Shown here: positions 54,601-63,600 of the stretch, piece after piece | Position numbering within the stretch: the stretch's first letter is position 1 | Layout of the letters: the number at the start of each line of letters is the position of its first letter | Assembly: GCA_022711115.1 (NCBI GenBank) | Contig: JAKLFP010000006.1 | Coordinates: forward strand, 19,699-83,698 | Reading direction: 5' to 3' | Source: Candidatus Omnitrophota bacterium | Lineage (GTDB): Bacteria > Omnitrophota > Omnitrophia > Omnitrophales > Aquincolibacteriaceae | Length of the DNA stretch: 64,000 nt | Notes under the pieces: generated by a model | The model's input: only the letters and a program-made list of their open reading frames with translations | The model's database searches: none | What the model was told of the DNA's origin: nothing | Program-made: the position numbers and the translations under genes

Positions 54601-57600
54601 TCTCCAGCATCGCTTGGGAAATACCCCCAACGAGAGCCACGCACATAAAACAAAAGTTTTGAAATCTGGTCCTCGGGTTGATGGGAAGAAGCATCATGGA
54701 TCGGATCAGGATTTCTCAAATGAGCAACAAAAATAGGATTCCTTAAGTAAAACTTAATCAACTCACGCTCTAATTGGAGCATGGCATCTTTTCTAGCTAA
54801 AGCCAAATATCCTTTGAATTTATTAAATAAATTTTCGTGTGCTTTAATCCATTCATCGATTATTGCATCATATTTTGCAAGTTCATTTTCAACTTCAAAC
54901 TGTTCTTGGGAGATTATTTCCCTTTGCTGTTTGCCGTATATGGCAATCAGATCTTTTAAATTTTTGACTCTAATGTCTACGACACCGTTGTTTTCCTTTT
55001 CGTCTATATTTTCAAAATTACTTCCAATCCAAGTTGGATCATCCTCAATCAGACTTATCCCAGTTCCTGGCGTCATAAAATCAATGTGTAACAATACTCC
55101 GCCCGGCATACCATTTCTGAAAACACCAATTAAGAACTTTTGGTCTGCATGAAACGATTTAGCTAATAACCCGGCATAGGCAGCAACCGTTCCGCTCGCA
55201 GTCGCATCATCATAAAAGATCAATGTTTTGCCTTCGACGCGTTTCGCCACATCAGTACCTTGCAGTAAGGTGTTAAGAATGTTCCGGGAGGCATGCCCGG
55301 CAGTAGTTTTTAGATGTAAAATATTCGCATATTCTCCCAACGTCTTATGATAAACACTGAGAATATCTTTTCTTAACTTTTCTGGAATACTTCCATTTTT
55401 TTGTTCATCCAGCTCATGACGCAACCGATTCTCAAACATGGTGATTTCTTCCATTGTTAAACGCATCGTTGCTTCAGACTTTGGCCCGAGCTGTTTTTCA
55501 ACTTCTGAGATAAGCCTGGAAATGTTTACGGGACCGGACGGAACTATTTCATTTACTAAAGCGATGATAGATTTGTTCAACCACAACTTGCCAATATATG
55601 CCGACAACATTGGATCGACAGCATCGCCGACTAACGAAACAAGTTGTCCAACCGTAATGTTATCACCCTGGATTTTTTCGAGCCCCTCTAGCGGGCCCCC
55701 TTTCTTGGCAACACACTGATCGATTACTCTTCGATCACCCGTATTCAAGGAAGAATATTGCTGCAATATTACACGCCAGCGTTCGCTTCCAACTTTCTGG
55801 TTTTTTTCATCATCGGTTAACAGCTGATTGATCGAGCGGGCTAAGGGATATACGAGATCTTCTGGTGACACCGAAATACGCCCCACCATGGGCTCGGGAA
55901 TAGGCTTTGTGATCAAACCTTGTTCCTTCAGTTTCCTAATAACCTCATCCCAGTGCTCATAAAAGATTTGCATACTTCGTTGGATAAAAAAGGGAATGGC
56001 ATCATTATTTAATTCTTTAATTTTTTGAACCATGCTTACGAGGCTAAGCCAATAAAGTTCCGGGAGTTCTTCGAGTCTTCTAACTAATGTTTTTTTTGCT
56101 AATGCTTCTAATTCCTCCTCGATCACAGCCCTGGTTTTCCTCGAAATTTTTTGTCGGTCTTCTATCCACCGTTCAAGAAGCTCTGTGTTCCCTCCAAAAT
56201 GAAGTCGATCCGCAAGATTTTTAAAATTTCTCACTTCAGCACGTTTGGCATCAGCCCGACTGGAGAGCTTGCTATGAGCTTTCGAGCGAGGAACTATATC
56301 AGGAACAGAGTGGCGAGTCAGCATGATGCGCTCCCCATTTTGATCCGTCATAGCCAACTGACGCAATTGTTCCAACGCGATTCTTTCATTCACGCTTCTT
56401 TCATAGCTTCCTTTTCCGGGATTCCAAATAGCTGCAGATTCTTTCGAAACTTCAGGATTCCCTGCTTTAAACCAATAAAGATCATAAATTTTTTCATAGG
56501 CAGCCATTCTGTGATCGTCTTCCCTTGGTTCATAAAAAAGAATCAACTCATCACCTTCCAAAGTATGCAAAATATTCCCCTGGATTACCCCCTTCCAAAA
56601 CCCCGCATTGTAAATATCCCCAATCCTTGTTCCGTCCTCTTTCCGAATCGCGCTTGGCGGGGCAGGATTTTCCTGCGGATGACTATGAATTTCGATTATC
56701 TCGTCAGGTTTTTGAGAAAGCTGATGGGATTGGCCCCGCAAGTTGCGCGCACCGATCCACGTCGTCACGGCATAATCGATGTTGAGAAGATCCCGAATCA
56801 TATCCTCTGAAAATTGAGTCATTTGCTCTAATTGCCCGGGAACTAATTCATAACGTGCTTGAGATTTCACGGAAAACAATTCGATGCGAACACGGTATTC
56901 CTTGATGGCTTTCGCAAGATCGCTAAGAATCGCTTTGCTTTCAGCCAGTCGTTCCGTTTTTTCCTTCACATCGGCTTTTTGGATGGCACCGGCAAGTTCT
57001 TTAGCTTCCCGCAAAAGATAAGCTGGAAATGAAAAATAATAGACATTTTCAGTCACCTCAAATTCGTCCTGTGAAAGAGACCTGATGACGGCAAATTTTG
57101 TTTCATCCCGCGGATAATCGATATCATAGACAATCCCATTCTTGACATAGAGCGTCGCTTCAAGCTCGACATCAAGTTTGGCCTTGAGCTGTGCTATTTT
57201 CTGAAGTTCCTGTAAAAAAACCGGCGGGATCGAAACTGTTTTGGCTCCGTCACGACTTTTGAAGATAATGGGATGGTCAAAGACAACCGGTTCCGCTCGA
57301 ATTTCGGATCGAAGATTCGGGTGTAAATTCACGACGTAATATTGTTCCGAAAAAGGAATGTGAGGAGGCATAGGGCTAAGATGTTTTAAAGTTTCAAGAC
57401 GATAAAGGCCTCCTAATTCTTCGAGATAGCGTTGCCAATCACTGGCAGTAAAAGTGTCTTTTTGATGCCCGGAAACAAACGCATAGCCTTCTCTGGCAGC
57501 TTGGTCAAACAATCTTTGGCGCAAAAGATTCCCGATCCCTTGTTTTTGCCATTCCGGTAAAACCTGTCGCGTTAGAATGTACAAAACTTTTTGCGAATGT

Positions 57601-60600: not shown

Positions 60601-63600
60601 GTATTGTGAGAAGAATAGACCGTATAGCGGCTTATGTCTTTGCCGAGTCTCTCGGCCAAAGGAACTTCCAGATCTCCCCAAGGAACATCGACATTGCGAA
60701 TGCCTTCACGGCGGTCCCATCGCAGTTTATGAAGTACGTGATCAAATGTATAGCGACCGCTGGGTGCGGGATTGATAAGAAGCTCCACTTCAACTTTTGA
60801 GGGATCATAAAGGTCAAAAATCTGAGGGTAGGCTGGCTTCGGCTCAGAGATCTTCAAAAAATTAGCCAGAACCTGGACTTTTTCTACCTGCGTTTCAGAA
60901 CGGCTTTCTATTAATGGTTTTTTTTCTTCCGCTGCGCGAAGTTCCGAACGGGACTCAAGAGCACGGGCATAGCTGTGGATCTCCTCAAGGGTGCTCAGAA
61001 GTTCGGGTCTACCCAAAATCCCGGATTCAGCCGCAAAAGATCGGAGGGTGTTTTTCATCCTCCCGTAGCGGGCTAGTATCTCCCGTGGATTGTCCTGATC
61101 GATCACAAATTTTGCATAAGCCTGACTTGGAAAAACAAACTCCTCTTCTGCCAGTCGGGCATGCTGCCAGAGCTCAAGAAATTTCACAGGATTTTCTATC
61201 TTCCGAACGGCGCTATCGCGTTCCAATCTTCTTAAAAATCTCAGCGGGTGCGGCGCTGTAACAAAGACAGAAAGGAGTTCGTACCCTGATAAAGCATCCC
61301 TGTAAGAACTATCCAGCACGTGAAGCCCGTCAAGTCCCAGGACATCACGTTCACCGAGCATTACAGAAGACGGCGTTCGATCTTTGGCAAAAAGGGGCGG
61401 AGGAAGGATCTCGGCATTACCTTTAAGAAGACCTTGGGTAATGCGAAGAACCGCTGCCCTGTCATAGGAATCTAAATGATCCAGGCTGAATCTTCCCAAG
61501 TAAAAGGGGCGTTGTTCTTTGGGCACGAGAAAATTGTCGACAGACACCGTGACTAAATTCCGGTTACATAATCTCAAGGCTTCCAGGATTTTTTCAATCA
61601 ATGTGGATTTTCCCGAAGCTGTAGGCCCCCCCATCAGCACGACTCCTCTGGGCGGTAAGGAGACTACCTCTTCCAGCATCTTCCGAAGAATTTCTTCACG
61701 CATTTCATCTTTTAAAGATGGTTCTTCATCTCGAACCTCCGAACGGGATAAATTTGATTTTATACGATCCGGAAAAAGAGCCGGCACGACATCCAGCCAG
61801 GCGTCGACTCCACGCAATCCGTTCAATTCTTTTGTTGCAACTACATCCGGATTCGTTTCATCAAATAAATCGACGGAAATGCCGCCTATACGATTCGTGA
61901 GTGCGATACCGTTCCGGCCAGGGCTGCCCTGATCATCAATAGAAATGAAATGATCTCTTCCAAGCAGTGTTTCATATCTTCTGACGGCATTCTGTTTGCT
62001 GGCACCCTCCGAAAGGATATCCCACGTAGTACCGGTCCATACGACCTCCACGGGAATGCCCTGTTTTTCAAAATAGGATCTGATCTCGGCGATTCTCGCA
62101 TTGATCCAGTCCGGACGGTTTTTGACTCCTTGAAGTGTCCCATAAGGAAGAAGCAGAGAAACGGAATAGGGCCGGAAAAAGGCGACTGGTTTTTCATAGG
62201 AAATATTTAATTGGCGATAGATATCCTTAATAAATATGCCTTGCAGAAATTTCAAAAAATCGTTTTGCTCTTTTTCTTTTTTTAAAAGAGGCTGAATTCC
62301 AAAGTGATACGGCTCCTGCGTCGTCTCATTAAAACCATAAGCAGCATTTTCAGGAAAAACATCCAGAAACCGAAGCGCTTCCTTGTTCTCTTTCAGAGTC
62401 GCTTCCAAGGGTAAAATGATATTTTCCAGGATATCCGCAATATAGGGCGGTGTCGCAGGCTTTCCTTCCAAAGAAACGATCCGCTGCTTGCGTTTATCAT
62501 AAATCCGGCCCGTCGCTAATCCGACACGGATCTTTGCTTTTAAAAGCTCAGCAATCCAAACAATAGCCCTGTGATCGACACGGTGTATGTTATCTGTGAT
62601 CGCGAAATCCACATCCGTCAAAAGTCCTGACCAGCCCCCGCGTTGTAATGCTTCAAACCTTTGACGGTGCAAAACACGCCTACCTTCTTCTTCCGTTCGC
62701 ATCTCCGAACGAACGTCTTCGCCGGGCTCCTCTGCCCCGGAAAAATCCGAAACGATATTATTCGGGTCAAGATTCTCGAAGGGATGTTCGAAAAATTCAG
62801 CAAGCATCCTGTTTGCTTTCTGGACGTAACCGCCTCTTTCCGCCAGATATTGCGGGGGGGTCGCCAAAAGCCTGGCTTCCATGGCAAATTTTAATTTTGG
62901 TTCAAACCATCCGACATTCAGCAATAACTTCATTTCCTCGATATTTCCTCGGGTCATTTTGCGCGGATATCCCAACCGCAATTCTCCCTGAAGGATCTCT
63001 TCGCTTATCCCGCCTCTCGGGTCCGGCCTTGCCGTCAGGAATATTTCAAGTTCATTCAGAAAATCCGCCCAATAACCCAAGCGAAGCGCGATAAAAATAA
63101 GTTCCATCTGGAGGGCATGCGGCAAAACACCTTTGATGTCATAGAGCTGAATGCCTGCCGTCGCATAGACAATTTGTCGAAAAATCTCTTCCGAACGAGT
63201 ATGCATTCCCATGGCTTCATACCGGTTCAAAAGACGCTTGGAAACAGCAAGCAAGCTCATGAATTTATCCCTAGTCACGAACCTTTGATTTCCTGTTAGA
63301 TTTCCGAGCGGGTCCCCTGCGGCTAATTCCATGGCGTCCCGGAGAAAACGCGCCGCCTCCTCTTCTTCGGTAATCACAAAATCCATGTGGAATCTATACC
63401 GCTCAAGCACCTGTTTTCTCATGCGGGTGATCATCCTGGCCTTGAGTGCTTCCGTCGGGATCAAACCGCTGTCTTCGATATCAAAGAAATGGGTATTTAA
63501 TTTCATCCTTTCTTCCTCAATAGCATTTTGTATCTCACGGGATCGTCCGTTTTTGGATGGCGGAGTGACAAAAACTTCCGAATAAATATCCAGCCACTCC

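Follow-up and report, generated by a model that had tools for sequence, protein, structure and literature searches.

A conserved junction pentapeptide bounds the enzyme cassettes of a giant Omnitrophota protein

Whether the giant open reading frames (ORFs) of Omnitrophota yield proteins that work uncut or in pieces is a recognised open question. West-Roberts et al. (10.1101/2023.11.21.568195) suspected cleavage and stated that the cleavage points are not known, a gap that blocks structural and functional analysis. The same question is raised by the stretch of DNA analyzed here (hereafter the window), 64,000 nucleotides from a Candidatus Omnitrophota bacterium (GCA_022711115.1, contig JAKLFP010000006.1, positions 19,699 to 83,698), in which a giant ORF occupies positions 42624..64000 of the minus strand. 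Its translation is divided into discrete units, each ended by a repeated pentapeptide, and this pentapeptide is conserved across related giants that carry unrelated or reordered cassettes. In our reading, the protein is probably a membrane-tethered, polyprotein-like array of conserved enzyme cassettes, with the pentapeptide most likely acting as a site-specific processing signal.

In the ORF list and the translation, one uninterrupted frame of the minus strand extends from 42624 to 63836 (7,070 codons, 21 kb without a stop). No in-frame stop was found on this strand from 63837 to the window end, so the ORF is cut off by the window edge and its 5' end runs off the window. An exhaustive protein search retrieved the NCBI record HOW59847.1 (P0006 below), a protein of 7,976 aa with 100% identity to the window ORF. 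This record is also open at the 5' end of its own contig, the complete protein having at least 7,976 aa. The window ORF begins at P0006 residue 907, and its numbering, used below unless indicated, corresponds to P0006 numbering minus 906. An independent assembly from a JGI metagenome contains the identical protein (P0085), and this, together with 21 kb free of stops, indicates that the ORF is real. The product name of HOW59847.1 at NCBI is RNA polymerase alpha C-terminal domain, the sole domain recognised, and such naming leaves out nearly all of the protein's content.

An earlier note on this DNA had described the region 56600-62650 as the N-terminal half, or the N-terminal 2400 residues, of the protein and read it as a string of enzyme-like domains. 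This region corresponds to P0006 residues ~1302-3318 of at least 7,976 and is not N-terminal. All the motifs quoted in the note are present in the translation at their positions, and five of its six domain assignments stand, the exception being PI-PLC, although the partition of the domains into discrete units, each bounded by the repeated pentapeptide, had been missed.

Giant proteins of Omnitrophota of the multi-enzyme metabolic cluster type have been reported (10.64898/2026.06.07.730766, 10.1101/2023.11.21.568195, 10.64898/2026.06.04.730025), and recent preprints, including 10.64898/2026.06.07.730766, describe their nucleotide and small-molecule salvage content. Strings of enzyme domains in these giants are already described and our region is a further example. 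As in those proteins, all detectable relatives are in Omnitrophota metagenome-assembled genomes (MAGs), HAD, GNAT, HATPase, PPDK-like, kinase and nucleotide-salvage domains tile one polypeptide, transmembrane anchors are few, no signal peptide was seen and the chromosomal context is ordinary. One difference is in size, with at least 7,976 aa here against at least 30,000 aa for the giants stressed in the papers. The papers also say nothing of junction motifs, and full-text literature searches returned no report of junction motifs or defined cleavage points in Omnitrophota giants. New here appear to be the junction peptide, which appears unreported, a divergent unit of the adenosine deaminase (ADA) family, and a JAB family not covered by profiles.

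The junction pentapeptide and the units it bounds

The pentapeptide R-[SA]-E-[MVILT]-[RQ] (RSEMR, RSEVR, RSELR, RSEIR, RAEVR and similar forms, RSExR for short) ends every unit at domain-sized intervals. The window ORF contains 20 in-frame copies against 0.22 expected, the maximum being 2 in 500 residue shuffles, and the full P0006 contains 22. Outside the coding frame, the five remaining reading frames of the 64 kb together contain only 3 matches, none of them in other genes of the window, and relaxed versions of the pattern gave no additional sites. Position 2 is occupied by Ala in place of Ser in ~15% of the sites. Cutting the ORF at the pentapeptide produces 19 units inside the window (those discussed here are called M0 to M7 and M9), and the homology envelopes from Pfam, NCBIfam and homologue alignments never span a pentapeptide.

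All copies are on the minus strand. The first of them is RSEMR at 62697..62711, followed by RSEVR at 61731..61745, the pair formed by RSELR at 60936..60950 and RSETQ at 60888..60902, RSEVR at 59634..59648, the pair formed by RSEIR at 57900..57914 and RAELR at 57855..57869, RSEIR at 57297..57311 and RAEVR at 56229..56243. The other 11, of 15 nt each, lie within 43464..54266, with their upper coordinates at 54266, 53054, 50549, 50075, 49508, 48428, 47822, 46970, 46241, 45692 and 43478. In the tandem pairs (60888-60950 and 57855-57914), the copies are 15-16 residues apart, separated by spacers of 10-11 aa (11 aa in the first pair), and relatives also have tandem pairs, 14-44 aa apart. RSETQ at 60888 is a degenerate copy, like its counterpart in the metagenome contig L008 (RSEAR).

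Around the pentapeptide, the 10 residues at each side show no conservation except that Pro, Ser, Ala, Asp and Glu are favoured, and their hydrophobicity is 0.22, against 0.33 ± 0.10 in random windows of the same proteins (n=75). The 19 residues preceding the pentapeptide of M6 are disordered in the AF2 model (pLDDT <50). The linkers in which the pentapeptide sits are polar and disordered. At the DNA level, the first Arg is encoded by CGT or CGC in 18 of the 20 sites here and in 39 of 52 in relatives, against a background of about 38-39%, and all 17 Ser codons of the sites here are TCN, while the remaining codons of the pentapeptide track background usage.

With the first 3,594 residues as query, a word-indexed search retrieved only five relatives (P0001-P0005) of 2,491-6,089 aa, P0005 being labelled Candidatus Omnitrophica. 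The only unit that they share with P0006 is M0, a helical module of 602 aa that is internal in the relatives and found at varying positions; the window holds its C-terminal ~430 aa at 62712..64000 (minus strand). M0 has 41-51% identity across the relatives of RSExR type and 31% in P0029, where an M6-like JAB unit comes directly after it. An alignment scan of M0 against 185,579 species genomes gave seven loci, from Omnitrophota or unnamed MAGs, all of them inside very long ORFs. No Pfam or PDB relative of M0 was found and PADLOC and PHROGs gave nothing useful, the module showing a faint resemblance to PPR/TPR-like repeats only. M0 was also considered as a candidate protease and discarded, having no invariant residues of catalytic type and no relative in PDB.

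The pentapeptide is present in P0001, P0003, P0004 and P0005 with 6-15 copies each, and in 6 of the 7 MAG loci with 5-12 copies, beside cassettes unrelated to those of the window. P0008, P0014 and L008 also contain it. In L008, an M4-like unit, another unit and an M3-like unit follow each other, with the pentapeptide directly after both the M4-like and the M3-like unit, and a histidine phosphatase and an oxidoreductase are found among the further cassettes. The sharing of M0 only and the reordering seen in L008 indicate that the units behave as shuffled cassettes with a C-terminal pentapeptide. The six consecutive cassettes M1-M6 each have the size of a free-standing protein, and stand-alone homologues end where the corresponding cassettes end, both for M4 (P0007, 581 aa) and for M5 (P0035, 174 aa).

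Multi-unit proteins from other lineages that contain M4-, M5- or M6-like units have no RSExR. In several of them (P0020, P0028, P0032, P0034, P0037 and P0046) we observed K-[SA]-[SA]-S-[SA]-G 16 times, against 0.09 expected, placed for example right after M6-like units, and this motif may be an alternative junction peptide. A third type of junction may be D-[KR]-A-M-L-[TR]-[KQ], with 5 occurrences in all, which brackets the M6-like unit of P0016 (residues 1585 and 1933) and precedes that of P0010 (residue 1792).

Cassette families

M1 (aa 381-697; 61746..62696, minus strand) had been called a HAD-IIB phosphatase-like domain. Seven HAD-IIB models match it in the correct order, with motifs I/II in the N-terminal and motifs III/IV in the C-terminal part, though all of them score at or below the curated cut-offs. 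In Pfam these are Hydrolase_3 (20.3 bits, cut-off 20.9) and S6PP (17.1, cut-off 20.3), and in NCBIfam the Cof, phosphoglycolate phosphatase, HAD-SF-IIB and SPP models at 8e-5 to 1e-3, Cof at 8e-5 having 22 bits against a cut-off of 137 and HAD-SF-IIB 19.1 against 41.8. The motifs were identified by inspection. Motif I (DVDFAIT, aa 408-414, 62595-62615) keeps both Asp of DVD, with Ala replacing Thr/Val. Motif II is LATGR (TGR at 62505-62519), motif III is GASK (ASK at 61992-62006), and motif IV (DDQGSPGRNG, 61908-61940) has the first acidic pair and lacks the second Asp of GDxxND. An insert of ~165 aa between motifs II and III fits a type IIB cap in place and size. M1 is likely HAD-IIB phosphatase-like.

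The uridine-kinase call for M2 (aa 703-962; 60951..61730, minus strand) was borne out. The cassette matches Pfam PRK (PF00485) with 24.5 bits, above the cut-off of 22, over profile positions 4-188 of 196, and NCBIfam udk (TIGR00235) with E 1.3e-14 over positions 8-192 of 207. It aligns with human UCK1 (7e-12) at the P-loop (GGPTASGKST at 61602-61631, GGTASGKST in UCK1), the catalytic Asp (SVDNF/SQDRF), the nucleoside-binding DH (LDHLD/FDHPD) and the Arg-rich lid (RFLRRLERD/RLSRRVLRD). M2 can be aligned with udk/UCK from end to end and has their GxxxSGKST motif, catalytic Asp, DH pair and RxxRRxxRD lid, but differs in being embedded in a giant chain. Its 54 bits are far below the NCBIfam equivalog cut-off of 220, which makes it a divergent member of udk/UCK. 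We consider the assignment of M2 as a uridine/cytidine kinase solid.

The SSHNTY sequence (60597-60614) of M3 (aa 984-1396; 59649..60887, minus strand) had been taken for a PI-PLC X-box. PI-PLC-X (PF00388) gave no match to M3 in Pfam at E up to 10, nor was there one in NCBIfam or in the PDB sequence search, and PADLOC and PHROGs gave nothing. A single homologue was found, with 58% identity, inside another giant ORF on L008, and there the hexapeptide reads SYHNVY, the common string being Y-S-x-H-N-x-Y-H-N-D-W-F. With no profile or PDB support and with the hexapeptide altered in the only homologue, the PI-PLC reading was rejected as unsupported. NAGPA (E 0.005) was the sole weak Pfam match of M3, and this hint was dropped since it was not reproduced in the L008 homologue. 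The single-sequence AF2 model (pLDDT 31.7) is unusable for judging a TIM-barrel fold, and no fold is assigned to this cassette.

Relatives of M4, M5 and M6 come from the exhaustive protein search, while the word-indexed search with long queries gave none for M3-M6 or for M3 alone. The former recovered relatives of M4-M6 (44% identity) and the protein itself, so the negatives of the latter, whose candidate lists seem to saturate with long queries, are uninformative.

M4 (aa 1402-1974; 57915..59633, minus strand) had been proposed as an adenosine-deaminase-like domain, a call that stands through its relatives and family profile and not through the module itself, which alone matches nothing in Pfam, NCBIfam, PADLOC or PHROGs. 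The M4 family consists of ~25 proteins in the exhaustive search, including stand-alone ones of 436-590 aa. Four of its stand-alone homologues exceed the cut-off of 27 of Pfam A_deaminase (PF00962; amidohydrolase superfamily): P0049 (46.8), P0048 (37.1), P0041 (33.6) and P0045 (31.3). The A3 profile, built from 17 sequences of the family, retrieves more than 30 adenosine deaminases from PDB, with the best matches at 6.3e-16 (9c67) and 1.3e-12. In module numbering, residues H149, H151, H409, H445 and D526 do not vary among the 17 sequences, and they align to the ADA motifs. The metal ligands are the HxH (RHTHITAS, 59169-59192), the third His (His214-equivalent) and the Asp295-equivalent, to which the His of GHG (His238-equivalent; 58293-58310) is added. 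The whole family has HLGD (58395-58412) for HAGE, with Asp for Glu217, and reads SDG (58050-58067), with Gly for the second Asp of TDD (Asp296). This HLGD and x-D-G consensus suggests that chemistry or substrate may differ from ADA.

Compared with the ADA family (PF00962), including the Cad1-type CARF-ADA (9c67; profile match at 6e-16) and the Plasmodium ADA (6ii7; 1e-12), the M4 family shares the invariant HxH, third His, GHG His and metal-binding Asp. It departs from them in having Asp at the catalytic Glu and Gly at the second Asp of TDD, in an extra ~130 aa of helices at the N-terminus, and in that M4 alone is not detected by Pfam or NCBIfam. At the level of sequence, M4 is confirmed as a member of the ADA family, its variant motifs being conserved and not a sign of decay.

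M5 (aa 1995-2175; 57312..57854, minus strand) is the GNAT acetyltransferase that had been announced, matching Pfam Acetyltransf_1 (PF00583) with 25.4 bits (cut-off 20.7) and keeping motif A intact (QKQGIG, 57531-57548). A representative search gave 30 GNAT homologues. A conserved adjacency of GNAT and JAB units was considered and dropped, having been seen elsewhere once, in P0020.

M6 (aa 2181-2531; 56244..57296, minus strand) had been described as carrying a JAB/MPN-like motif, which holds for its fold and not for any match to sequence profiles. The AF2 model made with an alignment of 20 sequences has the MPN fold (pLDDT 91.3, pTM 0.86), with a helical insertion; the top Foldseek match in PDB is JAMM1, which is not significant (E 0.17), and Foldseek against viral structures returned nothing. 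M6 and 10 of its relatives have no match in Pfam, NCBIfam, PADLOC or PHROGs, and the only related match of the family profile in PDB is a RadC JAB at E 1.4. Among the 20 sequences of the family, E44 (57156-57173) is nearly invariant and H204, H206, S215 and D227 are invariant, within H-x-H-P, P-S and G-D. The sequence IHSHPQENPAPPS at 56649-56690 (HSHPx7PS) has a spacing of exactly 8 residues from HxH to S, and the GD is at 56610-56627. This spacing, to which attention had been drawn, is real and is found as HxHx8S in all 20 relatives, and the Asp comes 12 residues after the Ser (Sx11D), against E...HxHx7Sx2D in the JAMM motif. M6 differs from known JAB/MPN proteins (CBASS Cap3, 9ild; P. furiosus JAMM1, 5ld9; Rpn11; RadC-type JAB) in the lack of a profile match, in HxHx8S with the Asp 12 after the Ser rather than Sx2D, in a helical hairpin insert of ~55 residues plus a C-terminal extension, and in that no ubiquitin-like partner was seen. 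It represents a JAB/MPN-fold family outside the curated profiles and is probably metal-binding.

Readings of the junction peptide

We suggest the following scheme for the array. The whole chain would be synthesised on the cytoplasmic side as a single polypeptide and would be tethered by two transmembrane hairpins far downstream, which hydropathy predicts at 47937..48074 (aa ~5255-5300) and 45732..45884 (aa ~5985-6035) on the minus strand and which are the only strongly hydrophobic stretches of the window ORF. A site-specific, Arg-directed protease would read the pentapeptide and release or trim the cassettes, and the gene would in effect be an operon in polyprotein form. With this topology, the string of enzymes would share one side of the membrane with the remainder of the chain, presumably the cytoplasm given that the units need ATP and acetyl-CoA. 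The uridine kinase, the ADA-family unit, the phosphatase, a possible phosphoribosyltransferase motif and a PPDK-like unit together point to a salvage theme, and the cassettes might serve the salvage or modification of nucleotides and small molecules, which would fit a host-dependent lifestyle.

A protease is the most economical reader of the pentapeptide, since the sites lie strictly at the junctions and four of the five positions are fixed. The tandem sites with short spacers, the coincidence of cassette ends with the ends of free-standing homologues, and the apparent swapping of the pentapeptide as a whole in other lineages also argue for it. That the pentapeptide is a protease site at which the chain is cut seems to us quite possible, if still short of probable. 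As a more tentative extension, RSExR, K-S-S-S-A-G and D-[KR]-A-M-L-[TR]-[KQ] could be lineage-specific processing sites, and the giants polyproteins cut by a co-evolving protease.

Some known systems are comparable. MARTX toxins contain modular arrays of effectors, which are freed by an internal cysteine protease domain (CPD) that cuts at inter-domain Leu sites. The giant resembles MARTX and the Porphyromonas gingipain-HagA proteins in being a long bacterial polypeptide with swappable cassettes and short conserved linker sites, with a cassette repertoire that varies by strain or lineage. Unlike them, it has no CPD or gingipain-like domain that we could find, carries enzymes of metabolic type instead of toxins or adhesins, has no RTX repeats or secretion signal, and is one in which we infer cleavage from sequence. 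Viral polyproteins with sites of 3C/NS3 type also have a strict short junction peptide within unconstrained flanks, a site that differs among lineages, and short spacer peptides between tandem sites. The giant differs from these in its location on a cellular chromosome, in its about 21 cassettes of unrelated enzymes and in that no cognate protease was found in the window.

Several observations weigh against the processing reading or narrow its basis. M3 is without family identity, and the likely HAD-IIB assignment of M1 draws on sub-threshold matches. One relative that contains the M0 module (P0002 and L006) has no pentapeptide. No protease gene was found near the giant gene within the window, and M6, from the comparison of its family and of the relatives, does not co-occur with the pentapeptide. 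The preference for CGT/CGC at the first Arg hints at a constraint on something besides the peptide. The 5' end of P0006 is open, and a signal peptide upstream is possible. Cleavage is only what we infer from the arrangement of the sites. M6 had separately been considered as the junction protease and was rejected, since most proteins of its family have no RSExR and P0001-P0005 have no M6.

The alternative that survives best is that the chain is never cut and works as a membrane-tethered multi-enzyme scaffold, the pentapeptide being a motif for docking, handling or modification in the linkers. A chaperone, an assembly partner, a secretion factor or a modifying enzyme could read it, and the statistics and linker context of the pentapeptide fit such readers equally well. 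No protease was found nearby in the window or co-occurring, and many proteins of this kind have been read as inner-membrane-anchored arrays of cytoplasmic enzymes (10.64898/2026.06.07.730766). Nevertheless, tandem pairs with spacers of 11-40 aa, and cassette ends that coincide exactly with those of free-standing homologues, are what processing sites typically show, and Ser modification is improbable as the purpose because Ala stands for Ser in part of the sites. The replacement of the whole motif by lineage fits the co-evolution of an enzyme and its site, although it is compatible with a binding partner too. We regard an uncut chain as rather unlikely, and retain site-specific processing as the preferred function of the pentapeptide.

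Another alternative, put forward by the earlier note, concerns the cassettes themselves, several of which would be decayed pseudo-enzymes serving as binding scaffolds only. There are departures from the canonical motifs in three of them, namely the Ala for Thr/Val in motif I and the missing second Asp in motif IV of the HAD unit, the changes from HAGE to HLGD and from TDD to SDG in the ADA unit, and HxHx8S with the Asp 12 residues past the Ser in the JAB unit, and single modules match the curated profiles weakly or not at all. However, the altered residues are invariant or nearly so in 17 ADA and 20 JAB family members that share 20-45% identity, which indicates purifying selection on the active site and not decay. 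Selection among orthologues could not serve for this purpose, since the sole close relative (P0085) is 100% identical, and the invariance within families was used in its place. The metal ligands are all kept (H, H, H and D in ADA; H, H and D plus E and S in JAB), the catalytic and lid residues of the uridine kinase align with those of human UCK1, and motif A of the GNAT unit is intact. In the HAD unit, where DVDFAIT had been read as decay, the nucleophile and acid/base aspartates are present and only motif IV leaves doubt. We therefore consider decay of these modules very unlikely.

The weakest alternative, and a highly improbable one, is that the element acts at the level of nucleic acid, as a micro-homology or scar of recombination, a site of RNA processing or an internal start, with the peptide as a by-product: the CGY excess at the first Arg, the uniform TCN at Ser, the clear shuffling of cassettes between genomes and a fourth codon that is often ATG, GTG or TTG would agree with it, but the Ser, Glu, fourth and fifth codons vary freely at their third positions, the fourth codon is not a start codon in ~40% of the sites of relatives, promoter-like sites are fewer than chance would give (18 against 25 ± 4.8), terminator-like sites are not at the junctions, no Rfam match lies inside the giant gene, and the pentapeptide is confined to the coding frame. 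Promoters, terminators or starts inside the gene were accordingly rejected as features of the junctions, where neither enrichment nor co-location was seen.

Other units, neighbouring genes and meaning of the junction peptide

Outside M0-M6, some units of the giant deserve mention. In M7 (54267-56228), LIFYDDATASGT at 55188-55223 resembles the PRPP-binding motif of phosphoribosyltransferases, with no profile support; such a motif would fit the nucleotide-salvage theme. M9 (50550-53039), a unit of 830 aa, is composed of ~16 copies of a helical repeat of ~47 residues with the signature I-x-L-I-T-A-A-Y, and its only Pfam match is a weak one to T1RH-like_C (E 1.8e-4; 21.4 bits, cut-off 26.8). The downstream units at 46242-46955, 43479-45677 and 49509-50060 include an RNA polymerase alpha-CTD-like HhH domain (6e-13), a PPDK/PEP-utilizer-like unit common to P0002 and P0034, and a weak HATPase-like unit common to P0020. 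The 906 additional aa at the N-terminal part of P0006 contain a coiled-coil unit, a methyltransferase-like unit with weak Pfam matches, and two further RSExR sites.

The neighbours of the giant gene encode a radical SAM protein, a flavoprotein, a tRNA methyltransferase, a lipid A acyltransferase, a membrane-bound hydrogenase-type complex, a DEAD helicase and a Fic protein. The Fic-domain gene (9460-10551) and the membrane-bound hydrogenase/Mrp-antiporter-type cluster (21626-28478) are unrelated to the finding on the giant ORF.

The junction peptide gives an objective rule for cutting giants into units for structure prediction and annotation. It was this splitting, into 21 units, that allowed the ADA and JAB/MPN families to be assigned, both of which had gone undetected by the curated profile libraries. 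The peptide also makes a falsifiable prediction for proteomics and biochemistry, and offers a handle on its cognate protease or partner through phylogenetic profiling. If the processing reading is true, the multi-enzyme giants of Omnitrophota would be equivalents of operons cut into dozens of ordinary enzymes, and a common junction sequence would ease the exchange of cassettes among them.

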